64,000 nt of DNA, from IMG/VR virus record IMGVR_UViG_3300035138_000081; one strand, 5' to 3'. The notes beneath the pieces are model-generated. The model saw nothing but the letters and a program-made list of their open reading frames with translations. It did not search any database and was not told the origin of the DNA. Positions within the stretch are counted from its first letter, which is position 1. Each line of letters begins with the position of its first letter. The stretch comes from a virus. Below are positions 52-63,883 of the stretch, in pieces. The translations under genes and the position numbers were made by a program.

Positions 52-1455
52 TCATTTAACCCTCCATTGTTTCTGATCTTCTGATAATTCGTAACCGTTC
101 ATTTCAAATGCTTTTCTTTTTAAATTACAAGGACCGCAATTGTTACACGGTTGATCATAGTTTTCATAGCACGACCAAGAATGTTCAATTGGTGCACCAA
201 GTTCTAATCCTAACTTAACAATTTCATGTTTTACATAATTTCCAACTGGTTCTGCTACATAAATTGATTTACCTTCTGCAACTGCATTAGGTAAGAGTTC
301 ATTAAACTTTCTAATAAATTCTGGATCATTATCACTAAAGGCTCCTGCTTCTTCCATGTTATTACCTAATAAAATTGCATCATAATTAATACTTTCTGCA
401 TACGCTGTTGCCATTGATAAGAACACTAAGTTTCTAGCATAGCACCATTCTTTTGCAATTTCAATACCTTCTTCTCCTTGTGCAATCTTTGCATTTGGAT
501 CAGTTAATCTACTTCCCTTAGCGGTACTCTTCCAAAAGTCTGTTTCAATTATTTTGTAATCGCATTTTAATGCTTTTGCGATATTTTTAATTGCTTCCAA
601 TTCTTTTCTTTGTGCTCTACAATCATACGCAAAATGCAATAGCTTTATTTTATCATATGTTCTTTTTGCGTGTGTTGCAACAACTGTAGAATCTAAACCT
701 CCACTGCACACTACTAATGCTTTTTGTTGTTTAAGTGGTTTACGATATAAGAGATCGAATGTATTAAAAGTATTATAACCCGCAACTAATTCAACTCCTG
801 AATATGGTGATATTTTTTGAACTGCATATTTATTTAAATCGAAAGCTTCTTTTAAGGATGAGAAACCCCAGTTAGAATGAGAATCTTTTGCAACGTATAT
901 TGGTTTATAGTTACACATTAAGATTATCGATAGCGGATTAGTTAAATTTCCAATTGCTAAGCTATAACTTCCTTTTAAAGTACAATTTAAATATTCAATA
1001 ACTTCTGATGCTTCATAATATTCTGATGTACCGAATCTTTTATAAAGCAATTGAGGTATTATTGCGCTATCTATTTTTGTATCCATTTTAAGATCATATT
1101 CTTTTATAAGTTCTTTATCATTAGCTATTGTTCCATTATGCGCAACTACCCAATTTTCATATCTAAATGGTTGCACGTCTGTTAATTTTTTATTTGCTAC
1201 AAATTCTGTAGTAGGTTCTGCTCTAAAGTTTGTTATTATCCAACCACCACAAGTATCTGTAGAAAAATTTGTTGTACTTAAAATTGCTTCTTCAGTATCT
1301 AAAAGCTTTATTTCTACATTATTTCCTGATTTCATTTTTGCAGCTTTTACTAATCCAAAACTATCTCTTCCTCTTACTTTACCATACTTTGTAATTCTAG
1401 AAAGCATTTGAGGCATACAACCTGTTCTTGTTAATGTTCCTCCAATTGAGCACAT
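52..1455 (-). CDS. queC: Gat-QueC fusion: class-II glutamine amidotransferase + QueC-like 7-cyano-7-deazaguanine synthase
   Basis: Starts MCSIGG (Cys2 Ntn-amidotransferase nucleophile). C-terminal half has PP-loop VVCSGGLDSTV and Cys cluster SWSCY..CNNCGPC as in QueC. Confidence 0.8.
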   Translation of the reverse strand: MCSIGGTLTRTGCMPQMLSRITKYGKVRGRDSFGLVKAAKMKSGNNVEIKLLDTEEAILSTTNFSTDTCGGWIITNFRAEPTTEFVANKKLTDVQPFRYENWVVAHNGTIANDKELIKEYDLKMDTKIDSAIIPQLLYKRFGTSEYYEASEVIEYLNCTLKGSYSLAIGNLTNPLSIILMCNYKPIYVAKDSHSNWGFSSLKEAFDLNKYAVQKISPYSGVELVAGYNTFNTFDLLYRKPLKQQKALVVCSGGLDSTVVATHAKRTYDKIKLLHFAYDCRAQRKELEAIKNIAKALKCDYKIIETDFWKSTAKGSRLTDPNAKIAQGEEGIEIAKEWCYARNLVFLSMATAYAESINYDAILLGNNMEEAGAFSDNDPEFIRKFNELLPNAVAEGKSIYVAEPVGNYVKHEIVKLGLELGAPIEHSWSCYENYDQPCNNCGPCNLKRKAFEMNGYELSEDQKQWRVK

Positions 1456-2222
1456 TTTATATCACCTATCCAATCTTGTAAATATTTTATATTGGCTTTG
1501 CATAAGTTTGCAATTTGATTTGAAAGGCCGTCTATTGAAAAATAATCTGAAGGTCTGTGAGGATATTTCAAAAAGTTTTTATAATTTGCTATTGACATGT
1601 TATAAATACCATATACAATTGGCTTAGCACTATCTACTGAACTTACCCAATCAAAATTAGCTAATTGCACCGTATCACCTAAATTTTCTTCCATCCCTAG
1701 CATATGGTAATACTTCTCTTTTATATCTGGATTATTCAATTGAAGATAATTACAAAAATCTACTCTTCTACCTAATCCACTAACCTCACCAATTTCTTCA
1801 TAAATTCCAAAGCCACTTATTGCTGGCATTTTCATCATTGTATTGTAACAAAACATTATCTCAGTTAAATCACTCCCTTGAGGTACACCTATCAAATTTG
1901 CTGAAGATATTTTTGATACTTTCTCAATTGCTTTTTCAACTAAGTTTAAAGTTTTGGTTGCATCAAATCTTTTATCGGGTAAGATAAAGTGTTGTGGATT
2001 TAACTCTTTTAAGATGGGTGTTAATTTCTTTAGAGGCAATGATTCCCCTAATTCAAAAGCACCATTATCTAAAATAATAGTATCTCCTTTTTCTTTACGA
2101 TCTAAATAAAATTTGCGATATGTATCATTTAACAAATAGATGTGCGCTAATACCATGTGGGTATCAGATAATGTTGCAAATTCATTTAAATATGGCACTG
2201 GACTTATAGTTGCAACTTTCAT
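1431..2222 (-). CDS. dpdA: DpdA-like guanine transglycosylase (TGT superfamily)
   Basis: 263 aa. LDNGAFE resembles the TGT/DpdA catalytic DSGGFQ loop. Embedded in the folE-queD-queE-queC cluster, as in phage deazaguanine islands. Confidence 0.5.
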   Translation of the reverse strand: MKVATISPVPYLNEFATLSDTHMVLAHIYLLNDTYRKFYLDRKEKGDTIILDNGAFELGESLPLKKLTPILKELNPQHFILPDKRFDATKTLNLVEKAIEKVSKISSANLIGVPQGSDLTEIMFCYNTMMKMPAISGFGIYEEIGEVSGLGRRVDFCNYLQLNNPDIKEKYYHMLGMEENLGDTVQLANFDWVSSVDSAKPIVYGIYNMSIANYKNFLKYPHRPSDYFSIDGLSNQIANLCKANIKYLQDWIGDIKCAQLEEH

Positions 2223-2623
2223 TATTTTATCTCCTTTTCAATATCATTTACTTCTTTATTATTTGCAAAATGCACTTCAAAATGAGTTGCAAATGCTAAA
2301 TTAGTTAATGCAGCTGCAAGATGATCTTCAGAATTCTCGCCTGCAGAATATGCATATAAATGTCTCATTGCAGCATCTACACATTCAGAAATTGGAAAAC
2401 CTTTCTTCCAATTATCTTTTCCATATTTTGGAATGCTTTCTTCAATTCTATCTGCGATACGTTCAAGTGCCGCTAGAGGAACTAAAGACAATTTTGATTT
2501 CCCTTGTACTTCTTTCTTGCCACCAGTTGAATATGTTTTAGCATTTGTTGCAGGTGCTACTTTATTTCTAGTTTTTGCTGCATTGTACCAATCTTTATCT
2601 TGCACTTTTAATTCTTCTCCCAT
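2222..2623 (-). CDS. dATP/dGTP diphosphohydrolase-like protein (DUF5664-type)
   Basis: GKSKLSLVPLAALERIA..KYGKDNWKKG..RHLYAY..DHLAAALTNLAF matches the remembered GK-x-L-P..KYG-x-NW-x-G..RH..HLAHA..NL pattern. Start moved to ATG 2623, which follows an AAAGGAAG RBS. Confidence 0.55.
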   Translation of the reverse strand: MGEELKVQDKDWYNAAKTRNKVAPATNAKTYSTGGKKEVQGKSKLSLVPLAALERIADRIEESIPKYGKDNWKKGFPISECVDAAMRHLYAYSAGENSEDHLAAALTNLAFATHFEVHFANNKEVNDIEKEIK

Positions 2624-2655
2624 TTTATAACTTCCTTTCAATAATTTATATTTAT

Positions 2656-2684
2656 ATTATATAATAAATTTTAATAAAAATAAA
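2656..2684 (-). promoter_or_regulatory. sigma-A/sigma-70-like promoter
   Basis: On the minus strand: TTTATT, 17 nt, TATAAT. Upstream of the 2623 gene. Confidence 0.5.
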
Positions 2685-2710
2685 GGTTTTTTAATAAAAA
2701 AAAATTATAA

Positions 2711-3265
2711 TTATTCTGATACAAGGTACGCTTCTTTTTTTAATTTGAAAAAAATATCATATGTCTTTGCTGTGTTCTGAGTTTGGGTAATTATTTCCTT
2801 TAGCGGCAATTGTTGTATTAGCAAATTTCTTAAAATGTTAAAGGATTCAAGTTGTTCTTTTGAAAGATCAGTTTGAATATTCGCCATCATTCTAATTTCT
2901 AAATCTGCAGGAAATGTACATTTACATATTCTACTTAATTCATGTACGTTATACCCATGTTCAATAATATCAAAAATATTTCCAAGTTCAATAAAATTAG
3001 TAGGGTTCCATCTATGCTGTTGTAAATTTTCAATTGGGTAAAAGTCTAAATAATAAGTTCCATCAGCACCTTCAGATATTCCAAATTTAAAATCATCTAA
3101 AGTTAAGAGAGAATACTTTGGTATTCTCTCCATATCTTTTGTTAGCGAAATTCTATTTCTATTAAGAGTAGCAATAGCATTATCTAAATTATCAAATATC
3201 TCTTTTGGAACTTGCAAAGTTTTTCTATTCCCTACCATTTCTAAACCAAACATCATTTCGCTCAT
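2711..3265 (-). CDS. hypothetical protein inside the deazaguanine cluster
   Basis: 184-aa ORF, co-directional and tightly packed between the folE and DUF5664-like genes. Confidence 0.6.
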   Translation of the reverse strand: MSEMMFGLEMVGNRKTLQVPKEIFDNLDNAIATLNRNRISLTKDMERIPKYSLLTLDDFKFGISEGADGTYYLDFYPIENLQQHRWNPTNFIELGNIFDIIEHGYNVHELSRICKCTFPADLEIRMMANIQTDLSKEQLESFNILRNLLIQQLPLKEIITQTQNTAKTYDIFFKLKKEAYLVSE

Positions 3266-3274
3266 AAGTTTCTC

Positions 3275-3841
3275 CTATTTACCTATCTTTAAGGCATTAA
3301 AAAATTCATTCTTTAAAGTATCTTGTTCTAAGAAATAGCCTGTTACATGTGAAGTAATTGTCTTGCTTCCAGGTTTTTGAACACCTCTCATTGTCATGCA
3401 TAAGTGTTCGGCTTCCATCACGACAATGCAACCCTTACAATCTAGATTATCTTGAATACAATTTGCAATTTGAGATGTCAAACGCTCTTGTATTTGCAAC
3501 CTTCTTGCAAAGGCTTCAGTTACTCTTGCAAACTTACTCAATCCAGCTACATAAGTTCTTGGTAAGTAACCTATATGACATACTCCAAAGAAAGGAACCA
3601 TGTGGTGTTCACAATGAGAATAAAATGGAATATCTTTTACAATAACTAGTTGATCACATTTTTCTGCATCAAATTTTCTTTTAAGAAATTTTGCAGGATC
3701 TTGCTCGTATCCTGCAAAGATTTCTTTATACATTCTTGCAACTCTATTTGGAGTATCTCTAAGACCTTCTCTCAAATATTCACTTGGTTCTATTTCTGAA
3801 AGCAATACGGTTACTGCTCTTTCAATTTGTGATTCATTCAT
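3275..3841 (-). CDS. folE: GTP cyclohydrolase I
   Basis: 188 aa with FYSHCEHHMVPFFG active-site motif. Confidence 0.9.
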   Translation of the reverse strand: MNESQIERAVTVLLSEIEPSEYLREGLRDTPNRVARMYKEIFAGYEQDPAKFLKRKFDAEKCDQLVIVKDIPFYSHCEHHMVPFFGVCHIGYLPRTYVAGLSKFARVTEAFARRLQIQERLTSQIANCIQDNLDCKGCIVVMEAEHLCMTMRGVQKPGSKTITSHVTGYFLEQDTLKNEFFNALKIGK

Positions 3842-3852
3842 GGTTTTTTCTC

Positions 3853-4449
3853 CTATTCTAAATTTAAATATGTATGTGCTTGTAAACCTAATCTTAATCT
3901 TGAATCTCTTTCAATAAATTCGAGTGCTTTTTGCAAACTATTTGCGGGATCTTTTGCATTGATTTGGAGAAAACAATTCCCTAGCGGTACCTTATCAACT
4001 TGAATGTTAGTATAATCAAGTTCATCATCCACAACATATTTAAGTTCAAAAGGTATGCACTCTTTATGTATTTGCCAATCATTTAAAGGTTTTGGAGATA
4101 CAGTTACCCAATCTAAACCTTCAATTTCAGATGTTGCGCTTGTTCCATTTGTTTCAAGTGCAATAAACATTTTTGATTTGTTTAAACCTACATATTCTTT
4201 GATTGCATTTAGTAAATAGCTTAAATCATATAAGGTAGGTTCTCCACCAGTAATTACAGTTAATGCACAATTGAAATCTAATTGCTGTATAATGTCTATT
4301 GAGCGCATTGTTTTCTTTACCTCATGATCAGTATCACACCATTTACAATTCAAGTTACAGCCAGCTAGTCTAATAAAATTAGCTAGCTTACCTGTATGAA
4401 TTCCTTCACCTTGAATTGATTTAAAAATTTCTACTACATTATAATTCAT
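3853..4449 (-). CDS. queE: 7-carboxy-7-deazaguanine synthase (radical SAM)
   Basis: CNLNCKWCDT cluster motif and ITGGEPTL. Start set to ATG 4449, which follows a GGAAGGGA RBS. Confidence 0.85.
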   Translation of the reverse strand: MNYNVVEIFKSIQGEGIHTGKLANFIRLAGCNLNCKWCDTDHEVKKTMRSIDIIQQLDFNCALTVITGGEPTLYDLSYLLNAIKEYVGLNKSKMFIALETNGTSATSEIEGLDWVTVSPKPLNDWQIHKECIPFELKYVVDDELDYTNIQVDKVPLGNCFLQINAKDPANSLQKALEFIERDSRLRLGLQAHTYLNLE

Positions 4450-4765
4450 GTATGTCATCCCTTCCTGAATAGCTTGCACCAATTGTTTGAATCATTTCAA
4501 AAATTACGTGCTTAGCATTTTGTTCTATCCACCTGCGATATTTCATCATGTCATCTTTGTTGTTTCTTTTTACTGCATCCCAGTATTCTTCAAATGCTAC
4601 AAATACTTTATCAAGTTCTGCTTGGGTTTCTTCAAGTTCACCTTTTATAATAGCATATCTTTCAAGGTCATTTTTTATATGACCCCATTTAGCAATTCCT
4701 GCATTTGTTTCTGACTTAACCGCATCCCGTAATGCTCTCATTAATTGCTTATCATCTACGTACAT
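4439..4765 (-). CDS. hypothetical all-alpha protein, possibly MazG-like
   Basis: Start moved to ATG 4765 (GGAGG RBS) because the track start overlaps the promoter. The IKGELEETQAELD acidic helix is only weakly MazG-like. Confidence 0.5.
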   Translation of the reverse strand: MYVDDKQLMRALRDAVKSETNAGIAKWGHIKNDLERYAIIKGELEETQAELDKVFVAFEEYWDAVKRNNKDDMMKYRRWIEQNAKHVIFEMIQTIGASYSGRDDIHEL

Positions 4766-4805
4766 AATACTACCTCCAAAAAGTTTTAAATATTTTATTA
4801 AATAT

Positions 4806-4834
4806 ATTATATGATAAAACTTTAAAAAAATCAA
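4806..4834 (-). promoter_or_regulatory. sigma-A/sigma-70-like promoter
   Basis: Minus strand: TTGATT, 17 nt, TATAAT. Confidence 0.6.
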
Positions 4835-4863
4835 TAGATTTATATTAAAAAATTATTAAAATT

Positions 4864-5307
4864 TTAATATACTACAGTTGCATAGCTGTATGGTGATTCC
4901 CAAAGTCTAATTCTTGAAAGATGTATTCTTTCACCATCAAATGCGTTTATTTTATCTTCTAAAATACTTCCCATTACCATTGCTAAATTTTCTGTTGTAG
5001 TATTTGAAGAGCATAAGGCAAGTTTCATGCCCGCTTGCTGCGAATTCTGAAGTAGTTGTAGGTCTATTGCATCACCATGAGTATTTACTACCATTGAGTG
5101 ATCAAACCCTTTAACAATATTGTCATTTACCATTACTTTCAACTTTCGAAAATCAATTACCATTCCATCTTTATCAAGTTTATTTGCTGCAATAGTTACT
5201 TCTAATTTATAAGTATGTCCATGTAAATTCTTGCAAGGACCATCATAATTAGTTAACCTATGTGCCATTGGAATATTAAACTGCCTAGTTACTCTTACTT
5301 CTTTCAT
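4864..5307 (-). CDS. queD: 6-carboxy-5,6,7,8-tetrahydropterin synthase
   Basis: PMAHRL..CKNLHGHTYKLEV motifs. Start set to ATG 5307, which follows an AAGGAGG RBS. Confidence 0.85.
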   Translation of the reverse strand: MKEVRVTRQFNIPMAHRLTNYDGPCKNLHGHTYKLEVTIAANKLDKDGMVIDFRKLKVMVNDNIVKGFDHSMVVNTHGDAIDLQLLQNSQQAGMKLALCSSNTTTENLAMVMGSILEDKINAFDGERIHLSRIRLWESPYSYATVVY

Positions 5308-5387
5308 CTTTATTTCCTCCTTGTTTGTTTTCATTTTTTGATGTACTAAAAGCCTTTTGAATTTCTTGTTGTAATTCAGCAAAGATA

Positions 5388-8168
5388 CTATTTACTTTGC
5401 TCTTTGGACTGCTGGTCATCGTATTCCACCTCTATCTCTTTTAAGATTTGAATAAACCTAGGCGATTTATGATAGAACCCGGGTTTTGCTTTGTTTTCAA
5501 TCAACATATGATTAATAACTAGCATTCTAAAAAGTTCTGCTAAAAGATTTGGTTCAATAACTTTAGTTGCTTCAAGAGAACTATAAGTTATTACACTTGA
5601 TGCAAATATAGGTAATACATCTATATTTAAAATCTTCTTAACATCTTCAACCTTATCAGCTGCAACTCTTTTTGCTTTAAGTTTTGTTTTGCTATAGCCT
5701 GCATAATCAAAAGATCGCTTGCTATAAATTTCATCTAAAAAATCTTTTGCAAATTCAACGTGTTCAGAAGTTACAATAACTTCCTCACCAGTTTTTGTAC
5801 TAAAAAGTCTACAAGCAGCTGCTACTGCAATTTTAAGCAATTTAAACCTTTGGTTGGCTCCTTCTACTAGCGGTATTTCTGCCGAATAAAAATTGCCTTG
5901 TTCAACAGCATATTTTAAAAGCAATTGTTCAGCATCTTTATCTATTTGAATATTTTTTGACGTTCGACTCCAAGCCCAAAGAATTAATTTAGAACATAAT
6001 TTTGCAGAATATTTTAAGTTACAAAAAGAATCTTTTACTCTTGCGGCATTAATTTCTTCTAAAGAAATATCATCCTTAGAAGTTGCAATTGCAAAATCAA
6101 ATCTTGCAATATCTTCTGGTTGACCTATTAATGAAGGTACTGTAAGTACGCCGTATGTTTCATTACTTAAACCGCCATATCTTGGATTTGATATCCAAAT
6201 AAGTCTTGTACGTGCATACGTTCGTTCAGTATGTATTTTTACAATTTCGGCTACTCCTCTTGATCTAATATCTGACATTTTAGAAATCTCATCAGTAGAT
6301 AAACCACTTGCCTCATCTATTATAAATATTCTAGTATCATTTAAAGGTATCTTGCCCCAAGTAATCATCCAGCGTCTATCATTTTGTTGCATTCCTCCAA
6401 CTAATCCGCTAAAGGAAGTATTCTCAGCTGTTGACATTTCGCCTAGTTTAAAATACTCAAGCATTTTAGCAACAGTTTCTGATTTACCTGTTCTAGTATC
6501 TCCAATTACGAGCATCTCAAGCCAAGGTTTTTGAACTTTATAACCCTGAAATTTTAAATCTAGAACAGAATGATATGTTAAGTCAATGCCTGTAAGCAAA
6601 TCTCTTCTGCCAATAATTGCGGTTATTTTTTCAAACTCTTCATGAATATCATCAAATTTTTCTTTAACTGAAAGTTCCCCTTTCTGAAAAACTTTAAGAC
6701 TATCAAACAATTTTGAAGACATTTTAAAACTTCGAATATCATCTTGTAACGCCTTTGCTTTTTCTAATACAAAAGTTGTTTTTTGATTCCAAGGTTCTGC
6801 ACAAAGCTTTCCTGTAAATTGATAAGATTTATTTGCGGATACTCTATCTTCATTTGCATAAAATGCGAGTTGTATCATATACTTGGAAAAGAAATCACCT
6901 ACTTCTGGTGCTAGCAGAAGCTCTTCTACATTAGTATATTTAATTACTTTGAAAGAGCATCTTCTACATTTTCTAGGTATTCCACCCATTTGATATATTC
7001 TTTGAACTTTTGTAGTGTTTGGAATACGTATAAATTCCAAAAATTCATCACTTTTAAAAACCTTTGAAGAAACTTCAGCTGTGTTATTTGGGCATTTATT
7101 GCAATATTCAGGACGATCTTCTTCATTCTGCTCACAAGTATATTCAACTTCTTTTGGTACTATATAAGGGCTTTCATCTTTACCAACTACTCTAGCGGGA
7201 TAGCTTATTATATCTTCGTGATTTTCAATTTGAGTAGCAGAATATAAATCATTGACCATTTTAACATCTGTTTGAGAAGTGTCATCTACCTCTAAATCTT
7301 CAAGTTTTACAAATCTTGCTTTACTTATTAAAACATTAAATTCTTCTATTGTATGATCTTCCGTGAAGAAATCTGTAATATCCATTCCAGCTTCGGGTAA
7401 TTGAATTATTTTAACATCTTTACCACTTTTGAGTAATCTTAACGCAACTTTTTCTGCATTTGTTTGACCTGCTTTATCCATATCATAGCAAATATATACT
7501 GTATCGCTTAATAGATCATGCCATTCTGATTTCCAAGTACCTGCACCACCAGTATTAGAAATGCTATTTAATCCAAAAGTTCTTAATAATAAAGCATCCC
7601 ATTCACCTTCACACAGATACGTAATTGAATCTTTTTGAAACAAATTCAAAGGATATAGTCTTGCGGACCCACATCCTTTAACATTTAGCATTTTAGGTAT
7701 CTTATTTGGACTATACTTTCTAAGATTAACACATAATCCCATCTTAGTAAAAATAGGGATAATGTATCTTTGAGTATGCATATCCCAACCAATATTGTGA
7801 TGTTTAATCGTTTGTTCAGAAAGCAATCTTTCTTCTAATAAATAACTATAGTGCTCTTGTTTTAAATTAGATTGATATTCACAAACATCTTCATAACTTA
7901 TTGATGGCGGTAAGGTATCACTTTTAAGATATTTTTTTAAAATTGCATTGGCTAATTTAAAGCTAACTTCATGAAATAGCATTATCCAACTAATTATATC
8001 CCCACAAAAATCTTCATCTCCAAAATCTTTATAATTTCCAGTTTGCAAATTAATACATAATGAAGGGCTTGAATCATTCCTAGTAAGTGCACTTACTCTA
8101 ATTTCACCATCTTCACTTGGTGTTGGGAGATCGCCAAGATAATATTCAAAAAATTTAGAAAACTTCAT
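5388..8168 (-). CDS. DNA primase-helicase (TOPRIM + P-loop NTPase)
   Basis: TOPRIM-like YLCEGEWDALLL and YICYDMDKAG. Walker A GDTRTGKSE and Walker B IFIIDEASG. Confidence 0.75.
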   Translation of the reverse strand: MKFSKFFEYYLGDLPTPSEDGEIRVSALTRNDSSPSLCINLQTGNYKDFGDEDFCGDIISWIMLFHEVSFKLANAILKKYLKSDTLPPSISYEDVCEYQSNLKQEHYSYLLEERLLSEQTIKHHNIGWDMHTQRYIIPIFTKMGLCVNLRKYSPNKIPKMLNVKGCGSARLYPLNLFQKDSITYLCEGEWDALLLRTFGLNSISNTGGAGTWKSEWHDLLSDTVYICYDMDKAGQTNAEKVALRLLKSGKDVKIIQLPEAGMDITDFFTEDHTIEEFNVLISKARFVKLEDLEVDDTSQTDVKMVNDLYSATQIENHEDIISYPARVVGKDESPYIVPKEVEYTCEQNEEDRPEYCNKCPNNTAEVSSKVFKSDEFLEFIRIPNTTKVQRIYQMGGIPRKCRRCSFKVIKYTNVEELLLAPEVGDFFSKYMIQLAFYANEDRVSANKSYQFTGKLCAEPWNQKTTFVLEKAKALQDDIRSFKMSSKLFDSLKVFQKGELSVKEKFDDIHEEFEKITAIIGRRDLLTGIDLTYHSVLDLKFQGYKVQKPWLEMLVIGDTRTGKSETVAKMLEYFKLGEMSTAENTSFSGLVGGMQQNDRRWMITWGKIPLNDTRIFIIDEASGLSTDEISKMSDIRSRGVAEIVKIHTERTYARTRLIWISNPRYGGLSNETYGVLTVPSLIGQPEDIARFDFAIATSKDDISLEEINAARVKDSFCNLKYSAKLCSKLILWAWSRTSKNIQIDKDAEQLLLKYAVEQGNFYSAEIPLVEGANQRFKLLKIAVAAACRLFSTKTGEEVIVTSEHVEFAKDFLDEIYSKRSFDYAGYSKTKLKAKRVAADKVEDVKKILNIDVLPIFASSVITYSSLEATKVIEPNLLAELFRMLVINHMLIENKAKPGFYHKSPRFIQILKEIEVEYDDQQSKEQSK

Positions 8169-8424: not shown

Positions 8425-8838
8425 CTATTTAAATAAATCTAATTGCTCTTGTTTGTCACCATTCAGTAAAGATTTTACTGAAGAATTTGTTTTGTTATTA
8501 TATACTTGATGTTCTACTTGTGCAACTGCACAAGCACCAATAAATTCATCTGGTTCAAAATTAAACTCACCTGAAAGGCTTTCTTCATCAATTCCTAAAG
8601 CAATTAAGAATTCTTTTAATTTCCAAAGTGCATTGTCTTTTAGAGATGTGCAAGCCCACAATTTTCTACCATTATACTTTGTTTCAATTTCTGGATCATC
8701 AGAACCAATTATTGTAAACTGCCAATTATAATAATTTTTATCTTCTCTGTACTCAATTTTTTCAACCTCTACATCATAGGTTCCTTCTGGAACTATTGCA
8801 CTGTTATCCTCTACTTTACTAAAATCAATTGCGCTCAT
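8425..8838 (-). CDS. DUF669 family protein (Sak3-like ssDNA-binding)
   Basis: VPEGTYDVEVEKIEY..GRKLW..LKEFLIALGI pattern typical of DUF669. Sits next to the AAA_24 ATPase. Confidence 0.65.
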   Translation of the reverse strand: MSAIDFSKVEDNSAIVPEGTYDVEVEKIEYREDKNYYNWQFTIIGSDDPEIETKYNGRKLWACTSLKDNALWKLKEFLIALGIDEESLSGEFNFEPDEFIGACAVAQVEHQVYNNKTNSSVKSLLNGDKQEQLDLFK

Positions 8839-8872
8839 ATTAATATCATCCTCTCATTTATTTTATAATTAT

Positions 8873-8901
8873 ATTATATATTAATTTTTAATAAAAATCA
8901 A
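8873..8901 (-). promoter_or_regulatory. sigma-A/sigma-70-like promoter
   Basis: Minus strand: TTGATT, 17 nt, TATAAT. Confidence 0.6.
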
Positions 8902-8925
8902 TGGTTTTTTATAAAAAATTTCCTA

Positions 8926-10806
8926 TTAGGAAATTCCATATTTGTTCCAGATTAAATCTAGAATCTTAGTAATGTTACCGCTAGAGAAAAGTAATACACC
9001 TTCTCCTAAAGCTTCTGTTCTATCTTTAGCATCAACTGTACCATCTGGTTGAACTTTAAGTACTCTTTGTAAGCCACCTTTACCTTTTAAGATATCAATA
9101 TATCCAACAATATCAGGAATTCCTGGAATCTCAGTTGATTGTTGTCCTGGAAGTTGAACAGTAACCGTTATTTTCTTTGTAGTTTCATCTACTATTCTTT
9201 GAGACAAAGTTGTAAAGAAAGTATGTAAAGGCAAGTCCCTAAAGTTTTGCATAATCATAAGCATCTGGTTCAAAGATTTACCCCAATGTTGAATTTCTGC
9301 TTGCTTTATTTTGGTCCAACTTCTATCCTCTAGCGGTATATACTTGTCACCTTCTGCAAAGTAGTGTAAACCAACCTTTTGTAAGGCTGTTACAGAATCT
9401 AAGGCAATTGCTTTATACGGGTGTTTTTGAGTTGCTAAATAATTAAAATACTTGCTAAGTTCTGAAATGCTTGTTACATTAAGAATTGTATACTTGGTTG
9501 GATCTTGCTTTGCAAATCTTATTGGTGCACCACCTTCACAATCAAGAACAAGTATTGGACTAGTTCTTTCATCATTGCAGCAATCTGCAATTAAGCTCGT
9601 GTTGTGAGTAACTACATGATTTTCTGTAAGAAACAACCCACTTGGATTAGCTGTTCGCAAACATATTGTCTCTTGAGAACCTACCGGAACTATTTCTCTA
9701 AGTGTTCTGCGACTTTCACTTTGACCTTTCTTAAATTTAGCAGAATGTTTTACAGAACTGAAACACTTAATTGCATATGGCATTTTAATTTCTAAAACAT
9801 AGGCTTTTTTACATTCAATATACACACCATCTTTTTTATATCCAGAATCTTCAACTGACAACTTCGCAGTTCCTCCAAGTGAAGTAACTAGATGTTGTAC
9901 ATCATCCGCCAACTGTTTAGAACTTGAACTATAAGAAGCGGAACTACCATCTACCCAACCATCGGTATCTATGATGCCTTGCAACATTTCTGTACGTTGT
10001 TTAACACTTCCATATTTGTACGCAAGTGGAATAAACTTTTCGTGAGATCTTTTAGCCCAAAGACCCCACTGCCTTAAACAGTATTCTAAGTGACCATCTA
10101 CAATCGCCCAATCAATACCATTTGGATTTTTCTTACTCATGGGTTTAAACGTTCCTTTAATACCACCTTCTGCATATTGGTTTCTGCAATAGTTTAAGAT
10201 ATCTTCTTCTGTGTTTGAAAAACCAATATAGTTACTTGCAAAACAGCCATCTCCTAATAGCAATCCTAAATAATAGGGTTCGTATGGGTAGTTCTTTTCG
10301 GCATATTCTACTGGTTTACACATCGGAATATAAACATTCCACTCCTTACAATCCAATTTCTTATCTACTTTATAAAGATCAGTTTGAAGCAATTCACTCA
10401 TTGTTACTGTTTTAAACCGATCTTTTCTATAGTCTCGCATGTTACGTGTCTGAATGTTCCATAAATGCGACTTATCACACACAATTGTCGTACCATCAGA
10501 AAACTTTAATGCATAGCAGGGTTGTAATCCCTGTTTATAAATACCCTCAACTCTATGGAAGTACCCATCTTCTCCAGCAACCAAATCTGTCGTTTTTAAT
10601 TCTTCAATAGGAATGTATCCTCTCTCTGTAATAAGTTTAGTACCTATCGCTAAACCCTTTCCTCTTCCACCGGGACTGTGTAAAAGTATGTTAAGATACT
10701 TAAATTTTTCTGAAACATCAATTCCTGGTAAGCCTCCAACTACACCTTTTGGTATAGCTGCTTCTTTTTTAAGTTCTGCTTTAGGGTCTATTTTTGGTTT
10801 TAGCAT
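8926..10806 (-). CDS. AAA_24/Sak4-like recombination ATPase interrupted by an intein
   Basis: The exteins join to give Walker A SPGGRGK|TSL. Walker B is AIALDSVT. The insert carries a Hint domain plus LAGLIDADG motifs. Confidence 0.75.
   Translation of the reverse strand: MLKPKIDPKAELKKEAAIPKGVVGGLPGIDVSEKFKYLNILLHSPGGRGKGLAIGTKLITERGYIPIEELKTTDLVAGEDGYFHRVEGIYKQGLQPCYALKFSDGTTIVCDKSHLWNIQTRNMRDYRKDRFKTVTMSELLQTDLYKVDKKLDCKEWNVYIPMCKPVEYAEKNYPYEPYYLGLLLGDGCFASNYIGFSNTEEDILNYCRNQYAEGGIKGTFKPMSKKNPNGIDWAIVDGHLEYCLRQWGLWAKRSHEKFIPLAYKYGSVKQRTEMLQGIIDTDGWVDGSSASYSSSSKQLADDVQHLVTSLGGTAKLSVEDSGYKKDGVYIECKKAYVLEIKMPYAIKCFSSVKHSAKFKKGQSESRRTLREIVPVGSQETICLRTANPSGLFLTENHVVTHNTSLIADCCNDERTSPILVLDCEGGAPIRFAKQDPTKYTILNVTSISELSKYFNYLATQKHPYKAIALDSVTALQKVGLHYFAEGDKYIPLEDRSWTKIKQAEIQHWGKSLNQMLMIMQNFRDLPLHTFFTTLSQRIVDETTKKITVTVQLPGQQSTEIPGIPDIVGYIDILKGKGGLQRVLKVQPDGTVDAKDRTEALGEGVLLFSSGNITKILDLIWNKYGIS
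9601..10656 (-). mobile_element. intein (352 aa) with LAGLIDADG homing endonuclease, class-3-like
   Basis: Residues 51-402: GLAIGTKLIT...VVTHN followed by +1 Thr. Two LAGLIDADG motifs (YLGLLLGDGCF, GIIDTDGWV). First residue is Gly (GGT), not Cys/Ser. Confidence 0.7.
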
Positions 10807-11120
10807 TCTTCATCCTCCTCTGCATCTGGATCTTCCCAATCGGATAGTTCACAGTCATCTCTTGAATCGCAATCTTCACAACTGCAACCGTCACAAAAGT
10901 CACTGCAAGGTAAAGTATCATCAGAACATTCTTTACAAATGTATTCACCACACGCACCACATTCACCAATTTGCGCATTTGAATAGCAATCTGTGCAAAA
11001 CCAGTTTTCACACGAGCAACATTCATACATTTCTTCTGGTGGCATTTCTTTACCGCAAGCATAACAAGTTTTTGAAATATCTCCTGTTTCTATATCTCCC
11101 ATATTAATCATTGAATTCAC
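10800..11120 (-). CDS. Cys-rich acidic protein (multi-zinc-ribbon-like)
   Basis: 106 aa with about 20 Cys in CxxC/CxC spacing and an acidic tail DWEDPDAEEDEEC. Confidence 0.55.
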   Translation of the reverse strand: MNSMINMGDIETGDISKTCYACGKEMPPEEMYECCSCENWFCTDCYSNAQIGECGACGEYICKECSDDTLPCSDFCDGCSCEDCDSRDDCELSDWEDPDAEEDEEC

Positions 11121-54624: not shown

Positions 54625-56385
54625 ATGCCATCTTTTGGAGATTTTGATGCAGTTTCAGTAACGTTTGTTGATGCAGATTATCCTGCAATAAGTGCAACAA
54701 ATTTAAACAATGTAGTAAACTTGCTTGAAGAATTAGATACAGAAGCTGCAAGAAGTCAAGATATAAAATTTAAAGATTACTTACCATACTTTGCAGCAAG
54801 AAATTGGAAACCAATTGTAAGATTAAATGACAGTGCTGATTGGACAGGTGCTGGAACAGTATCATTAAGCAATGATGATACATATTCACCATTTGATCAT
54901 ACATCATTAAGATTGACTGAAACAAATGATACTGCCGGAACAATGGAAGCTTATCAAACGGGCTTGTCAATTGATTTAACTAAATTTGCGGATGAAATTA
55001 CTGCTGCAAGTACCGCAATGAATGTAATGTGGATAGTATATGTTTCTGATTCAGCGTATTGTTCATCGATAACAATTAGATTAGGTACAGATTCATCAAA
55101 TTATTTTTCAGTAACTTATTCACCCGCAGGAGGATTATCTTCTGGATACAACACTTTCATGCCAGAAAAAACAACGTATTCTTCAACTGGAAGTCCAGAT
55201 TGGAGTACAATAAATTACATTTCACTAAGATGGGCATCTGCTTCAAATGCATCTGGTGAATACGTCAACTTTAACTTATTGCAAATGACAAGACCTAGAG
55301 ATGGTTCAACTTATATTCCAGGATGCTGGACATTGGATGATGGTGCTGGAAGTTGGACTAACGAAATTGCTTATAGTTATGGACATGGTTGGCCATCATT
55401 AGTATATAATTATCTTTTAGAAAAAATGGGTTCTCAAATTTCAGAACCAGTAGATTCTATTTGGGCACTGGAACTTACTCCTGATTTTGAAGTATATTCA
55501 TTCGTTGGAAAGTTTGAATGGGGTGTTGTTGAAGAAGATGAAGTTCCAGAAATCAATTGGATATCAAATGGTTCAAATTATATCAGTGTCTATGTCTCTA
55601 GCGGTACTTTGTACATTGATGAAAATGTTGGCGGTGCTGGAGTTGCAACAGTAGAATCTCAAGCATTAACAAGCCCTCTTTATAGAGGTCAGAAATGCTA
55701 TTTATATATTGAAAAAGTTGAAGAGTTATTTAGAGTTATATTTAAGTGTGGTAATCAAGCAACAATTATTCTAGAACACGAAACTACAATTACAACTGCT
55801 GGATATATCTGTATGGGTTCTGGAAATAGTTCCGTAACTTCAAATGCGGGTTTAGGTATTCTAACAGATTATTCAATTTCACATACTCAAGTAAATCAAT
55901 TAAGTGGTGCTATTGGTGATGAAGATATCCCAACAGTTGTTTGTAAAAAAGAAGATACTACAAGAAGTTCAACTACTACAGTAGCTCAAGATCCAGAACT
56001 TTCAATACACTTACAACCAAATACGACTTATGAATTAAGTGCAAAATTATTTGTTGAAGCTGAGAGTGTTACACCTGGCGTTAAAATAGATTGGGAAAAG
56101 AGTGACGGTAGTGGTGACCAAATTGGGTACAGACTTACACACGGTCCTGGACAGAATGCAACTGCAACTTATAGTGATGAAGCTAGAATGTGTGGTTATG
56201 CTTATTCATCGGATATCTCATATGGCGTTGATGGTTCAAGAGCTTCTGGTATCTATGAAAGTTTTGTTTATCGTACAAGGAGTATTGGGGCAGAATTTAC
56301 AATTAGATGGGCACAATCTTCTAGCAGTTCAGATTCTGTAACTTTAAAGAAGCAAAGTTATATTAAAGCACAAAAAGTAAATTAA
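54625..56385 (+). CDS. tail fibre / receptor-binding protein candidate
   Basis: 586 aa, the last large structural ORF before the lysis genes. Confidence 0.4.
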   Translation: MPSFGDFDAVSVTFVDADYPAISATNLNNVVNLLEELDTEAARSQDIKFKDYLPYFAARNWKPIVRLNDSADWTGAGTVSLSNDDTYSPFDHTSLRLTETNDTAGTMEAYQTGLSIDLTKFADEITAASTAMNVMWIVYVSDSAYCSSITIRLGTDSSNYFSVTYSPAGGLSSGYNTFMPEKTTYSSTGSPDWSTINYISLRWASASNASGEYVNFNLLQMTRPRDGSTYIPGCWTLDDGAGSWTNEIAYSYGHGWPSLVYNYLLEKMGSQISEPVDSIWALELTPDFEVYSFVGKFEWGVVEEDEVPEINWISNGSNYISVYVSSGTLYIDENVGGAGVATVESQALTSPLYRGQKCYLYIEKVEELFRVIFKCGNQATIILEHETTITTAGYICMGSGNSSVTSNAGLGILTDYSISHTQVNQLSGAIGDEDIPTVVCKKEDTTRSSTTTVAQDPELSIHLQPNTTYELSAKLFVEAESVTPGVKIDWEKSDGSGDQIGYRLTHGPGQNATATYSDEARMCGYAYSSDISYGVDGSRASGIYESFVYRTRSIGAEFTIRWAQSSSSSDSVTLKKQSYIKAQKVN

Positions 56386-56743: not shown

Positions 56744-57487
56744 ATGTCGTATTCAAAATATTTAGTTTGTTTAGATGGAGGTCACGGAGAGAATACAGGT
56801 GGTAAGAGAACACCTACTATGCCAGATGGTTCCGTGATCAAAGAAAATCAATTTAATGATGATGTCATAGCATTAATGAAAAAGCATTTAGAATACTTAG
56901 GTTTTACAGTATTAGATGTTGCACCTGAAACAAATGATACTTCATTATCAACAAGAATTTCAAGAGCAAATGCTAGGTATAAATCTTTTAGTTTAACAAC
57001 AGCAATCTATGTAAGTATTCACTATGATGCTTACACAGGCTCATTCGATAGTTGTAAAGGTGGTAATTCTATCTTTTACTATCCTGGATCTATTAAAGGA
57101 AAGAAACTTGCAACTGCAATTTATAAATATTTAGTCCAAGGCACTGAACAAGCATCTAGAGGTGTTAAAACTGCGAACTACTATGTACTAAGAAAAACTG
57201 CAATGCCAGCAGTACTTTCAGAAAATGGTTTTATGGATGTACTTGCAGAAGCAAAGTTAATGCTTAATGAAGACTTCCAAAAAGAAGTTAGTAATGAACA
57301 CGTAAAAGGAATTTGCAAGTACTTTGGATTAACCTATAAAGCATATTCCTCTAGCGGTACTACCTCAACAAGTAGTTCAAGTACATATAAAGTTCAAGCA
57401 GGTTCATTTGCAAGTAAAACTAATGCAAAAAACTTAGTAAGAGAACTTAAGAAAGATGGATATTCCGCTTTCTATTATAAAGACTAA
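56744..57487 (+). CDS. N-acetylmuramoyl-L-alanine amidase endolysin with SPOR domain
   Basis: Amidase_3 motifs LDGGHGENTGGKR, SIHYDA, SENGFMD. C-terminal SPOR-like YKVQAGSFASKTNAKNLVRELKKDGYSAFY. Confidence 0.85.
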   Translation: MSYSKYLVCLDGGHGENTGGKRTPTMPDGSVIKENQFNDDVIALMKKHLEYLGFTVLDVAPETNDTSLSTRISRANARYKSFSLTTAIYVSIHYDAYTGSFDSCKGGNSIFYYPGSIKGKKLATAIYKYLVQGTEQASRGVKTANYYVLRKTAMPAVLSENGFMDVLAEAKLMLNEDFQKEVSNEHVKGICKYFGLTYKAYSSSGTTSTSSSSTYKVQAGSFASKTNAKNLVRELKKDGYSAFYYKD

Positions 57488-58368: not shown

Positions 58369-58528
58369 GAATATGCGGTAAAATACCTAATTTTAAATAT
58401 TTATTTTATATATTTTTATAAAAATTAACGATTTAAATACGGAAATACCCCTTTTAAAAATTTGGCGAATATAATTACGTTGGCCAAATTAAATCATTTT
58501 ATTTTCGATTTTACTTAAAGCATGCAAA

Positions 58529-58560
58529 TACCGCTAGAGGAAAGAGATTCCTTAGCGGTA
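58529..58560. repeat. inverted pair of the TAGCGG word forming a 13-bp hairpin
   Basis: TACCGCTAGAGGAA, AGAGA, TTCCTTAGCGGTA. Confidence 0.8.
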
Positions 58561-58571
58561 AATGCTAAATT

Positions 58572-58940
58572 TTATTCTGCCTTAACTTTATTTATTCGAA
58601 CTTCAAAATCATCAAATGTTGAAAAGATTGAAGTATCGATTCCAAAAATCCAAAAGTTATCTGGTTCTAGAATTGTTTTACGTTCATTTATTTCTGTACC
58701 TATAATCTCTCCATTTCTATAAAACAAGATAGATATTCTTATGTATCTAAGATTTTCATCTGAAACATTTTCTACTGCAGTAACTAAGTATTCCTCTTCT
58801 TCATCATATTCAGTTGTACAAATTTCTGCCTTACCACTTTTATCTTCTTTTAAAAATACATCATTATTTAATTTGCTATATAAACTAGCTACGCTTATAA
58901 CTATTACCAAAAACCCAATTGTACTAAATGCTCTTTTCAT
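58572..58940 (-). CDS. membrane-anchored protein
   Basis: 122 aa with N-terminal TM segment TIGFLVIVISVASLY. Confidence 0.55.
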   Translation of the reverse strand: MKRAFSTIGFLVIVISVASLYSKLNNDVFLKEDKSGKAEICTTEYDEEEEYLVTAVENVSDENLRYIRISILFYRNGEIIGTEINERKTILEPDNFWIFGIDTSIFSTFDDFEVRINKVKAE

Positions 58941-59467: not shown

Positions 59468-59607
59468 TTTTCATTCTCCTTTTCATCTTCTTCTATACTT
59501 TTTAAAACTTCTTCAGTTTCACTAATAATAGTAAACTGTTCTACAATGTTGTAAGGGAAATCAGTTTCTCCTAGCGGAAACCACTCCGCTGTTTGAAATA
59601 TCTTCAC
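59464..59607 (-). CDS. 47-aa acidic hypothetical protein (below the ORF-track cutoff)
   Basis: GTG start overlaps the upstream TAG, and the stop overlaps the downstream ATG (ATGA). Confidence 0.35.
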   Translation of the reverse strand: MKIFQTAEWFPLGETDFPYNIVEQFTIISETEEVLKSIEEDEKENEK

Positions 59608-60395: not shown

Positions 60396-60720
60396 TGTTA
60401 TTCCACCCTTCTACTGTTGTTGAATTTTGTATAATTTGCTGATAAGAAAACTTTTCACATACTTTATCATAGTTTGGTGCATACTGCTTTCCAAATTTCT
60501 GTTTATTTTCTGCTTTTATCCTTCTGGATTCCTCTAGCGGCAATTGCTTTATGAAATCTTCTTCTATTGAAGCTCTTTCTTGATAAAACATATATGCAAC
60601 TTTTTTAAGAGACATATTTAATTCTAGGCATGACATGCAAAATCTTTTTAAACTTTCTACTCTATTCTTTCTCCAATCCGGAATTGTAATAGAGTTTCCT
60701 TGTGAATTCATCAATATCAT
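60385..60720 (-). CDS. hypothetical protein, paralogue of 61926..62258
   Basis: ENKQKFGKQYAPNYDKVCEKFSYQQIIQ resembles RNKEKYGNKWGPTWKYMLTKY..IIQ in the 61926..62258 ORF. The start is uncertain. Confidence 0.45.
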   Translation of the reverse strand: MILMNSQGNSITIPDWRKNRVESLKRFCMSCLELNMSLKKVAYMFYQERASIEEDFIKQLPLEESRRIKAENKQKFGKQYAPNYDKVCEKFSYQQIIQNSTTVEGWNNIVG

Positions 60721-62692: not shown

Positions 62693-62858
62693 TGGTTTTT
62701 ATAAATTATTATATTAAATTAATATTAAAAAACGTACTTAAAAACGGTTTTTCCGCTAGGGGAACATACTTCCAAATTATTAAAATGCGTTTTAAATATT
62801 AATGGATTTAAACCGTTTTTTAAAACGCGTTTTATATATTAATATGAAACCAAAAAAT

Positions 62859-62908: not shown

Positions 62909-62937
62909 TTGATTTTTAATAAGAAATATCATATAAT
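62909..62937 (+). promoter_or_regulatory. sigma-A/sigma-70-like promoter
   Basis: TTGATT, 17 nt, TATAAT. Confidence 0.6.
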
Positions 62938-62976
62938 ATAATTAATAAAAATTATTTAATTAAAAAGGAGATAACT

Positions 62977-63504
62977 ATGAAAAAAGCAATTTGTGGAATA
63001 TGCAACAAAGAATTCGAAGATGATGGCAGCTCTAAATTTTGCTTTCACTGTGGTACTAAATTTTGTTCAGAAGAATGTCAATTAGAAGCAGGATTAAGTT
63101 TTGATTATGATGGAGATGTATTAATGTGCAAGATTTGTGAAGGGGTGTTTGATGAAAGTGATGGACTTATGTTAAATTTTCCAAATGAGAGTAAAGTTGA
63201 AAAAAGATATGATGAACTATATAAAAAAGCACAAACAGAAAAATTGAGTGTGGAAGAAACTGAAGAATTAGTAGATTGCTACGAACAAATATTTGAAAAC
63301 ATAAATCAAAAATATTATTTTATAAAAGACCTTCAAGATACAGACAATGAAGAGTGTGATAATGCAGTATTGAAAGATCAACTTTTACAAATGAAAATGC
63401 AAAGAGATTTTATGGAGCATCAACTTCAAGAAGCAAAAAGAGTAGTGCATAAATTGAAAAATCCTTCTTTGTTTAAAAGAATTTTGAATAGGCTATTTCC
63501 TTAA
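62977..63504 (+). CDS. zinc-ribbon plus coiled-coil protein
   Basis: 175 aa with CGICN..CFHCG..CKICEG and a helical C-terminus. Confidence 0.55.
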   Translation: MKKAICGICNKEFEDDGSSKFCFHCGTKFCSEECQLEAGLSFDYDGDVLMCKICEGVFDESDGLMLNFPNESKVEKRYDELYKKAQTEKLSVEETEELVDCYEQIFENINQKYYFIKDLQDTDNEECDNAVLKDQLLQMKMQRDFMEHQLQEAKRVVHKLKNPSLFKRILNRLFP

Positions 63505-63512
63505 AAATTATC

Positions 63513-63550
63513 AAAAAAAAAGGAGCTTTGATAGCTCTTTTTTTTTATTT
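63513..63550. terminator. bidirectional terminator between convergent genes
   Basis: A-run, GGAGCT, loop, AGCTCT, T-run. Confidence 0.6.
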
Positions 63551-63883
63551 TGGAATTTGCAATTTGTCAAACTTTTCAATATACTTTTCCTTAGCGGCAA
63601 TCCATAGCCCGCTTTCAGTTTGTTTTATTCCTGCAAGGTTTCCATAGCTAGTACCAACTTCTGCATCTATTGTAAATTTGATATCTGATTCTAATGGTTG
63701 ACGTTCCATTACTTCTTTTATAACATTCATTACTTCATGGAAACAAGATTTATGTATTTCAAATGTTATACTATCATGTACCGTAAACAGTATTCGTGCA
63801 TATTTTTTATAATATGCTTTAAAATGTCGATGCAATGTTGATAAAGCTGTTAAAGTAATTTGTGCAGCGGTCCCTTGTATCAT
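63545..63883 (-). CDS. family A DNA polymerase, C-terminal exon/fragment
   Basis: IQGTAAQ (Pol I has PMQGTAADI) and motif C FTVHDSITFE. The ORF opens exactly at the IQGTAA box with no RBS. Confidence 0.75.
   Translation of the reverse strand: MIQGTAAQITLTALSTLHRHFKAYYKKYARILFTVHDSITFEIHKSCFHEVMNVIKEVMERQPLESDIKFTIDAEVGTSYGNLAGIKQTESGLWIAAKEKYIEKFDKLQIPK

Follow-up and report, generated by a model that had tools for sequence, protein, structure and literature searches.

It has been known since the 1960s that phage DNA can carry site-specific nicks; to our knowledge, neither their function nor, for the most part, the enzyme that makes them has ever been established. The nick motif of tf/LUZ24-like Pseudomonas phages is 5'-TACT/RTGMC-3' (WACTRTGAC in phage Rembedalsseter). 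The consensus is 5'-CGACxxxxxCCTA/CTCCGG-3' in phiKMV-like phages and 5'-R/GCGCRGG-3' in T5 and BF23; nick-less T5 mutants are viable. Only one strand is nicked in tf, Rembedalsseter and T5, and it is the non-coding strand in phiKMV-type phages. The tf word (TACTGTGAC) and the PaP3/LUZ24 word (TACTATGAC) differ by one base, for which co-evolution of nickase and site has been suggested (PMC3517423). Here we analysed a 64,000-nucleotide stretch of viral DNA (IMG/VR record IMGVR_UViG_3300035138_000081; hereafter the window), part of an uncultured phage genome of at least 66.9 kb that is represented in metagenomes only. It carries a 15-base word, TTCCTCTAGCGGTAA, in about 47 copies in genes and spacers. 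We tentatively propose, by analogy with the systems above, that a phage-encoded strand-specific enzyme recognises the word and would most likely make site-specific nicks. On this view the word fits best among the nick motifs, as a new variant with denser, evenly spaced sites on both strands.

The core of the word, TAGCGG, was present in 58 copies (37 on the plus strand and 21 on the minus strand), against 7.0 ± 2.45 expected from dinucleotide shuffles. Preceded by a pyrimidine tract, TAGCGG occurred 43–47 times (expected, <1), and YYYYTAGCGGNA occurred 37 times (expected, 0.21). In coding DNA, YCYYTAGCGG was observed 19/9 times against 0.78/0.23 in codon-preserving shuffles. A first-pass annotation of this DNA had reported 43 copies and had named the codon-preserving shuffle beforehand as a test that could refute its proposal; the counts lie far above both controls, and the observation is real. 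Its 43 coordinates all exist, with one correction (5868 instead of 5869). The sequence logo read t-T-c-C-t-c-T-A-G-C-G-G-[T/A/C]-A-a, that is, tTcCtcTAGCGG[T/A/C]Aa, with six invariant core positions and no G at the three positions after GCGG. Information was limited to about 15 nt, and no sequence signal was found outside them save a mildly higher G+C content 10–20 nt downstream. Position weight matrix scores were bimodal, with 43 sites at ≥17 bits (28 plus, 15 minus); a rule-based definition gave 47 sites (30 plus, 17 minus). Cores with one mismatch behind a pyrimidine tract numbered at most eight in each class, at or near expectation, compared with 43 exact cores.

The orientation of the word is independent of transcription, as had been proposed: 17 of the 47 sites are in sense orientation, 20 are antisense and 10 are intergenic. 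The word is not a promoter, terminator or RNA signal; half of its copies lie within genes in antisense orientation. A strong strand bias, in contrast, did not hold up. The first-pass annotation had counted 11 reverse copies and had missed those at 2470 (TTCCTCTAGCGGCAC, 2467–2481, sense in the open reading frame (ORF) 2222–2641 on the minus strand), 6406 (TTCCTTTAGCGGATT, 6403–6417, sense in the primase gene), 8978 (TTTCTCTAGCGGTAA, 8975–8989, sense, near the 3' end of the AAA_24 ORF), 36707 (TCTCCTTAGCGGCCA, 36704–36718, 15 bits, antisense in terL) and 50099 (TTCCTTTAGCGGAAT, 50096–50110), and a weak one at 34150 (CATCCATAGCGGCAT, 34147–34161). Because these minus-strand copies were missed, the bias is weaker than claimed: the true split is 30:17 (binomial P = 0.08). 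Likewise, nine of 11 copies in the block of minus-strand genes at 1–20.8 kb had been said to point the same way, and the actual numbers are nine plus and five minus.

Recurrence 'every ~2 kb' was borne out for the plus strand, where the 30 sites lie about 2.1 kb apart (gaps of 0.5–4.8 kb) with a coefficient of variation (CV) of 0.45, compared with 0.97 ± 0.16 in simulations (P < 5e-5); this result was stable under three site definitions. Regularity on the minus strand was weaker and depended on the definition (CV 0.48–0.76, P = 9e-4 to 0.19). The two orientations alternated more often than by chance (31 runs against 22.7 expected, P = 0.005). Fourteen of the 17 minus copies have a plus copy 22–850 bp to their right (6.6 expected, P ~2e-4 to 2e-3), and only three close pairs have the opposite order; therefore, the copies often form divergent pairs with their pyrimidine tracts facing inward. 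The only long runs of one orientation, ---|+++++, flank an AT-rich region.

Related words were then found in related phages. The closest metagenomic relative is one 58.6-kb Joint Genome Institute (JGI) contig (loci L126 and L129), which has a terL 68% identical to that of the window and the same replication/Que module. Its word is TTCCCCTAGTGGAA, in fuller form TTCC[C/T]CTAGTGGAA, so that the core differs by a one-base switch from C to T (TAGTGG versus TAGCGG). It has 19 pattern-defined sites (about 22 with weaker variants) in 36 kb and contains the quasi-palindrome TTCC-N-CTAG-N-GGAA; TAGTGG behind a pyrimidine tract has zero copies in the window. The switch can be followed through synonymous changes at orthologous sites. 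The conserved primase peptide IPLVE is encoded by ATA CCG CTA GTA GAA in the window, where a weaker copy (TTCTACTAGCGGTAT, 5862–5876, plus strand, 14 bits) lies antisense, and by ATT CCC CTA GTG GAA in L129, where the same codons carry TTCCCCTAGTGGAA on the sense strand. At the QueE peptide VPLG (window copy ATTCCCTAGCGGTAC, 3976–3990, plus strand, antisense), the window uses CCG and L129 uses CCA, and this synonymous proline change yields the TAGTGG variant. Relatives that lack the word use different codons at the IPLVE/VPLG positions. It is density rather than position that is maintained, because most sites are not positionally conserved.

Two cultured phages, Weizmannia phage Youna2 and Bacillus phage BSP7, have the replication/Que module, terL and the endolysin in common with the window (23–49% identity, same gene order), and the other structural genes are not common to them. 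An unbiased k-mer scan identified the word TTCRCCTGCGGAG in Youna2 and TCAYCTGCGGA in BSP7, which combine to TCRYCTGCGGA; no mention of either word was found in the literature searched. The copies lie mostly on the non-coding strand (80–86%): 16 of 20 in Youna2 (4 plus, 16 minus) and 19 of 22 in BSP7 (3 plus, 19 minus). Further relatives, found by a metagenome scan with a primase alignment, carry CTGTAGCGGATAC or CACCTGAAGA. Locus L138 has cTTCTGTAGCGGATAC at 14 sites on both strands, and its site list, judged by eye, does not show the minus-then-plus pairing. L133 has tTCCTCTAGCC(c)AA in five exact copies and the shorter core CTCTAGC in 10, all on the minus strand, and L160 has CACCTGAAGA at 10–13 sites in several frames and orientations. 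All seven word variants consist of a pyrimidine tract followed by C-T-[A/G], and the generic pattern TTCNYCT-N0-2-GNGG was enriched only in the window, L126, L129, Youna2 and BSP7. An IMG/VR scan with the exact 14-mer gave, among the matches listed, only single chance matches without homology to the window.

The word was not found throughout the module. L130 and L131 have the same module, including DpdA3, and no dense word was detected in them; none was found in the 13 kb of L132 by k-mer and pattern scans. L130 and L131, and apparently L132, keep the same primase family with intact Toprim residues. L160, conversely, has a related word, and no Que gene lies less than 10 kb from its primase. 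Thus, the word family travels with a primase-centred replication module without being tied to DpdA3 or universal within the module; since the primase itself served as the query for finding these loci, part of its link to the word follows from the sampling. The word survives codon-preserving shuffles, shows synonymous covariation in a relative and has related words in related phages, which shows that the DNA word itself, and not the proteins, is under selection. These results support the earlier proposal of a genome-wide cis-acting signal, acting at the DNA level and selected against coding constraint.

The word is kept at high, even density on each strand and co-evolves with the phage lineage. 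Such a sharply defined word is typical of a highly specific enzyme. Its sharp specificity, its orientation dependence, the per-strand spacing and the co-evolution with the lineage all point to a phage-encoded reader acting on one strand, and related phages carry their own slightly different versions, as would be expected of a selected signal for a phage enzyme. To date, association with nicks is the only experimentally established meaning of enriched, strand-asymmetric, lineage-conserved phage words of 9–19 nt. In the mechanism that we propose by analogy, a phage-encoded sequence- and strand-specific enzyme would recognise the word and cut one strand at or beside it, and the resulting 3'-OH ends or flexible points would serve replication or packaging. 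Both strands would carry such sites in this phage, often as divergent pairs 20–850 bp apart.

The tf/LUZ24-like motif offers a close parallel. Like the word described here, it is a short asymmetric sequence that is enriched about 10–20-fold or more, lies inside genes, is kept across a clade with little nucleotide similarity, and has one-base variants and partly conserved positions among relatives. Both occur about once per 2–3 kb on the main strand; the plus-strand density of one per 2.1 kb is close to that of tf (14 per 46 kb). The two differ in that the tf/LUZ24-like motif has 9 nt and 13–14 copies, all on one strand and clustered near one end, with nicks physically shown, whereas the present word has about 15 nt and about 47 copies, split 30:17, evenly spaced and often in divergent pairs, and is known from sequence. 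The phiKMV-like and T5/BF23 sites resemble it as long, G+C-rich one-strand consensus sequences, and the non-coding strand of phiKMV nicks matches the prevailing strand of the Youna2 and BSP7 words; they differ in having only 4–5 major sites per genome and no gene homology to the window phage.

Several observations weigh against nicking. Scans with Pfam, PHROG and NCBIfam revealed no nickase, methyltransferase or HNH candidate among about 50 ORFs. Known nick systems use one strand, as the Youna2 and BSP7 words mostly do, whereas 17 of the 47 sites in the window are on the other strand; opposite-strand pairs lie only 22, 101 and 187 bp apart and would be fragile if both members were nicked. Known nick motifs also cluster towards one genome end, in contrast to the even spacing found here, and the window phage is unrelated to the tf/LUZ24-like phages and shows no homology to T5 or phiKMV. 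Finally, a nick model leaves unexplained why C-T-[A/G] follows the pyrimidine tract in every variant. The features shared with nick motifs are the strong enrichment, the conservation in relatives and the one-base co-evolving variants.

In a second reading, possible but somewhat more doubtful, the phage's own primase would use the word as a hard-wired start site, with CTA or CTG as the initiation trinucleotide. The window encodes a 926-amino-acid protein (5388–8168, minus strand) in which a DnaG-type primase core is fused to an MCM-like ATPase/helicase (matches to Toprim_2, MCM, PDB DnaG 2au3/4e2k and TIGR01391). Its gene marks the module that the word family tracks, and the protein is the candidate reader under this reading. 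In bacterial DnaG primases, initiation takes place at the middle base of d(CTA), d(TTA) or d(CTG) (PMC2978363). T7 gp4 primase uses 5'-(G/T)2GTC-3' with a 3' flank that is read by its zinc-binding domain, and its active sites are 1–6 kb apart (PMC12839067). The present word would share this bipartite layout and the kilobase-scale spacing: the 5' tract TTCCTCT would template a purine-rich primer, 5'-AGAGGAA, and the recognition domain would bind the uncopied 3' box, (A)GCGG-H-A-A. Even spacing would then hold Okazaki or re-priming intervals at about 2–4 kb, and the plus-strand spacing falls within the Okazaki-fragment size range. Sites on both strands irrespective of transcription are consistent with priming, the ---|+++++ orientation across the AT-rich region fits a bidirectional origin, and the loci with the primase module that carry the word include some that have Que genes and some that lack them.

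On the other hand, known primase recognition sequences have 3–5 nt, carry little information and are not over-represented long words, whereas 12–15 nt are nearly invariant here; a site this sharp is unprecedented for a primase. Sampling with the primase as query inflates the association, and L130, L131 and apparently L132 keep the primase family with the word undetected. In Youna2 and BSP7 the word is on the template strand of all genes, which would require forks running against transcription or leading-strand priming. The quasi-palindrome in the closest relative suggests, in addition, recognition of double-stranded DNA. Taken to its full extent, with the word as a long specific DnaG-MCM start signal at which replication begins or re-begins from purine-rich primers at about 50 evenly spaced strand-specific sites, this proposal is a little less likely still. 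T5-type interruptions and lagging-strand priming, both among the candidates of the first-pass annotation, thus remain the best readings; two others on its list, a DpdA context and the Chi of B. subtilis, fared worse.

In the first of these, the word would provide the context for the DpdA3 transglycosylase to insert, or leave out, a 7-deazaguanine base. The full Gat-QueC/FolE/QueD/QueE/DpdA3 set adjoins the replication genes, and the core has four G on the word strand. However, the transglycosylase of the window is of the DpdA3 type, a subfamily reported to replace essentially all G (PMC10516641), so that its phages would be fully substituted. Known DpdA motifs are GA and GGC, of only 2–3 nt, and a modification target needs neither enrichment nor even spacing. 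The word is also decoupled from the DpdA3/Que genes, with no dense word in L130 and L131 and a related word in L160, and we consider this reading very improbable. No dense word was found in Cellulophaga phage phiST, a DpdA3 phage.

The word of the window includes AGCGG, the B. subtilis Chi pentamer, and its orientation dependence and regular spacing on each strand would suit a Chi-like or self-marking signal for a translocating helicase-nuclease, either host AddAB/RecBCD or the SNF2 and PD-(D/E)XK proteins encoded in the word-associated module. Frequent, well-oriented copies would then protect the phage DNA or direct recombination. Chi and uptake sequences are similarly dispersed, orientation-sensitive, selected and also intragenic, but they are host-genome words of 5–12 nt, in contrast to a word that belongs to a phage lineage, and known Chi sites have 5–8 nt. 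AGCGG without a preceding T was not enriched (18 copies against 20.6 expected), and the word of BSP7, a B. subtilis phage, lacks AGCGG. Phages of two host genera, Weizmannia and Bacillus, have almost the same word, and yet a single base separates the words of two close relatives; the reader is therefore more plausibly phage-encoded than of host origin. A Chi-like role is therefore unlikely.

One inverted pair brings in a further host-based reading. The copies at 58528–58542 (TTCCTCTAGCGGTAT, minus strand, left arm) and 58547–58561 (ATTCCTTAGCGGTAA, plus strand, right arm) form a hairpin with a 13-bp stem (−20.4 kcal/mol, z −4.0) followed by a U-rich run (58520–58580), located between the convergent late and early gene blocks; it is probably a bidirectional terminator. 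Uptake sequences are evenly spaced and form terminator hairpins, and the terminator-like hairpin of this pair resembles the behaviour of uptake signal sequences and DNA uptake sequences (USS/DUS). The even spacing in both orientations would also suit a host-determined word of this kind, acquired by the phage. Nevertheless, the words keep to a phage gene module although its carriers differ greatly in GC content and host, and we know of no uptake sequence in B. subtilis, the host of BSP7. Host determination is unlikely, and acquisition of an uptake sequence seems hardly credible.

Finally, the word could be the binding site of a phage protein that binds double-stranded DNA in an architectural, packaging or regulatory role, without strand chemistry. 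The quasi-palindromic core CC-N-CTAG-N-GG, the many unannotated small ORFs and the frequent location of late-region plus copies at gene junctions speak for such a protein. Against it, orientation matters (per-strand regularity, a pair order of 14 versus 3, and the one-strand bias in Youna2 and BSP7), the words of Youna2, BSP7, L138 and L160 are not palindromic, and half of the copies are antisense and intragenic. We regard this reading as improbable.

Whether the word marks nicks or primer starts, the case shows that a 15-nt DNA signal can alter the choice of codons, and at times even the protein sequence, throughout a phage genome, and can be rewritten genome-wide upon a one-base shift in specificity. 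The clade links the word to a defined replication module with visible co-evolution of word and lineage, and two of its members are cultured and genetically accessible: BSP7, whose host is B. subtilis, and Youna2, whose host is W. coagulans. Should the word prove to mark nicks, their role could be tested in B. subtilis. Should it mark primer starts, which would be the more novel outcome, this would be the first genome hard-wired with long specific priming sites; the 'enigmatic' nicks seen in other phages might then represent unsealed junctions at hard-wired starts, which would join two phenomena so far treated apart.

The window has a G+C content of 31%. It had no nucleotide match in INPHARED and no close terL relative in IMG/VR (best identity 28%), and tRNA and Rfam searches returned zero matches. 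A profile search of genome contigs with the primase alignment yielded seven contigs, all from metagenome-assembled genomes, and pointed to no host. Genes are transcribed leftward at 1–20.8 kb and 58.5–64 kb, and these blocks encode the 7-deazaguanine set, the replication/recombination module, RNase H and a PolA fragment. The late genes at 31.5–57.5 kb run rightward and include terL, a Mu-like portal and protease, a long ORF and the endolysin. Ancestry is mosaic: the Mu-like head and portal module is common to the uncultured phages L126–L128, and the replication/Que module, terL and endolysin are common to Bacillus and Weizmannia siphoviruses with an SPP1-type portal (L123/L124 comparison).

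The 7-deazaguanine genes (52–5382, minus strand) encode Gat-QueC, the DpdA3-type transglycosylase (1431–2222), a dGTP diphosphohydrolase-like protein, FolE, QueE and QueD. Here, plus-strand copies of the word lie at 513–527 (TTCCCTTAGCGGTAC, antisense in the Gat-QueC ORF 52–1455 on the minus strand) and 2795–2809 (TTCCTTTAGCGGCAA, antisense in ORF 2711–3265, minus strand). The protein encoded at 2222–2641 (minus strand), between FolE and DpdA3, has a MazZ/DatZ-like dATP/dGTP diphosphohydrolase N-terminal domain; it is present in L129 and L138 but not in L130 or L131, and may deplete dGTP, aiding replacement of G. A weaker plus copy at 7187–7201 (CTACTCTAGCGGGAT) is antisense in the primase gene. 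The remaining replication/recombination module (8425–14461, minus strand) comprises a DUF669/SSB-like protein, an AAA_24 protein with a LAGLIDADG intein, a PD-(D/E)XK nuclease, an SNF2 helicase and a conserved 162-amino-acid ORF. Its copies are at 9325–9339 (ATCCTCTAGCGGTAT, plus), 11839–11853 (TACCTCTAGCGGTAA, plus, antisense in the nuclease gene), 13608–13622 (TTTCTCTAGCGGAAC, minus, sense in the helicase gene) and 13792–13806 (TTCTCTTAGCGGTAT, plus).

The AAA_24 (Sak4-like) ATPase (8926–10806, minus strand) is split by a LAGLIDADG/Hom_end intein-like insert at residues ~265–340, and its orthologue in the closest relative is insert-free with 262 amino acids. The conserved ORF upstream of the SNF2 helicase encodes a protein of 145–162 amino acids with invariant D-P-G..G, E and H..D..H (window, 13973–14461, minus strand; L138, 4360–4797; L137, 740–1228; L133, 3995–4459; L123, 34846–35292; L124, 30426–30866). 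Its motifs suggested a RuvC-like resolvase, which was rejected: a Pfam scan and a profile search of PDB sequences were negative, hhalign assigned a probability of 1% to a match with E. coli RuvC, and the AlphaFold model was unusable (predicted local distance difference test score, pLDDT, 36.7). At the other end of the window, a separate ORF (63545–63883, minus strand) follows an in-frame stop and encodes the C-terminal 112 residues of a family A DNA polymerase. In relatives, the UDG-exo-PolA fusion is intact, with about 880 amino acids; in the window phage the gene may be split, or broken by an intron or other ORF, just beyond the window end.

Between the replication/recombination module and the late genes, copies are at 18251–18265 (TTCCTCTAGCGGTAC, minus, intergenic), 18585–18599 (TTTCCCTAGCGGTAA, plus), 22227–22241 (TTCCTCTAGCGGTAA, minus), 22678–22692 (TTTCCCTAGCGGTAA, plus), 25661–25675 (CTTCTCTAGCGGCAA, plus), and, as three intergenic minus copies to the left of the AT-rich region, 25765–25779 (TTCCTCTAGCGGTTA), 27654–27668 (TTTCTCTAGCGGTTA) and 27851–27865 (ATCCTCTAGCGGCAA). 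The AT-rich region itself (28360–31200) is a low-complexity, non-coding stretch of about 21% GC with zero word copies; it is flanked by three minus copies to the left and five plus copies to the right. It consists of degenerate AT-rich tandem and inverted repeats, including CCCCGGTTATATAA repeats at 30807–30857, with a few G+C islands (e.g., 29336–29375), and may be a replication origin. A public Logan contig starts at ~31.1 kb, at its right edge. An exact 30-nt repeat, ATAAAAAGGAAATAGTTCCTCTAGCGGAAA, at 28307–28336 and 42403–42432 holds a plus copy each time (TTCCTCTAGCGGAAA, 28322–28336 and 42418–42432, the latter intergenic); its second occurrence lies 20 nt before the prohead protease/scaffold gene begins.

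Plus copies follow at 28922–28936 (TTCCTTTAGCGGTAA), 31412–31426 (TTCCCCTAGCGGCTA), 31943–31957 (ATACCCTAGCGGAAT), 33937–33951 (AACCCCTAGCGGAAT, intergenic), 35826–35840 (TGTCTCTAGCGGAAA, codons 3–5 of terL), 37419–37433 (ATCCTTTAGCGGTTA, intergenic), 39338–39352 (ATTCTCTAGCGGTAA), 44956–44970 (TTCCTCTAGCGGTAA), 47631–47645 (ATCCTCTAGCGGAAA), 49258–49272 (TTTCCCTAGCGGAAT), 52029–52043 (TTCCTCTAGCGGCAA, near the 3' end of the 898-amino-acid ORF 49462–52158, labelled a putative tape measure in the first-pass annotation), 53789–53803 (TTCCCCTAGCGGTAA), 55593–55607 (TGTCTCTAGCGGTAC) and 57346–57360 (TTCCTCTAGCGGTAC, near the 3' end of the endolysin gene). Minus copies in this part are at 41810–41824 (TTCCACTAGCGGCAC), 48811–48825 (ATTCCCTAGCGGTAA) and 53151–53165 (ATCCTCTAGCGGTAA). 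Beyond the hairpin, plus copies lie at 59566–59580 (TTCTCCTAGCGGAAA), 60529–60543 (TTCCTCTAGCGGCAA) and 63586–63600 (TTTCCTTAGCGGCAA, in the ORF for the PolA C-terminal fragment), and an intergenic minus copy lies at 62750–62764 (TTCCCCTAGCGGAAA).

Some candidate words in other loci were rejected: GCTGTAG in L130/L131 follows codons, a 60-bp coding repeat accounts for CCTCCGGT and GTCCGCAT in L181, and GTTATAAC in L128 belongs to a local 17-bp iteron array. A fixed orientation of the word relative to the replication genes was also dropped, since L129 has five plus and five minus copies. The L128 array (7744–7897) lies upstream of the terminase region, contains ten 17-bp iterons (GTTATAACAGCTACATA) in tandem and is probably an origin or regulatory array. 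L127, whose terL is 64% identical, has a different, palindromic word, TTTGCCGGCAAA (half-site TTTGCCGG), at seven sites in 21.5 kb, for example at 1310, 15771 and 20838, compared with about 0.4 expected.

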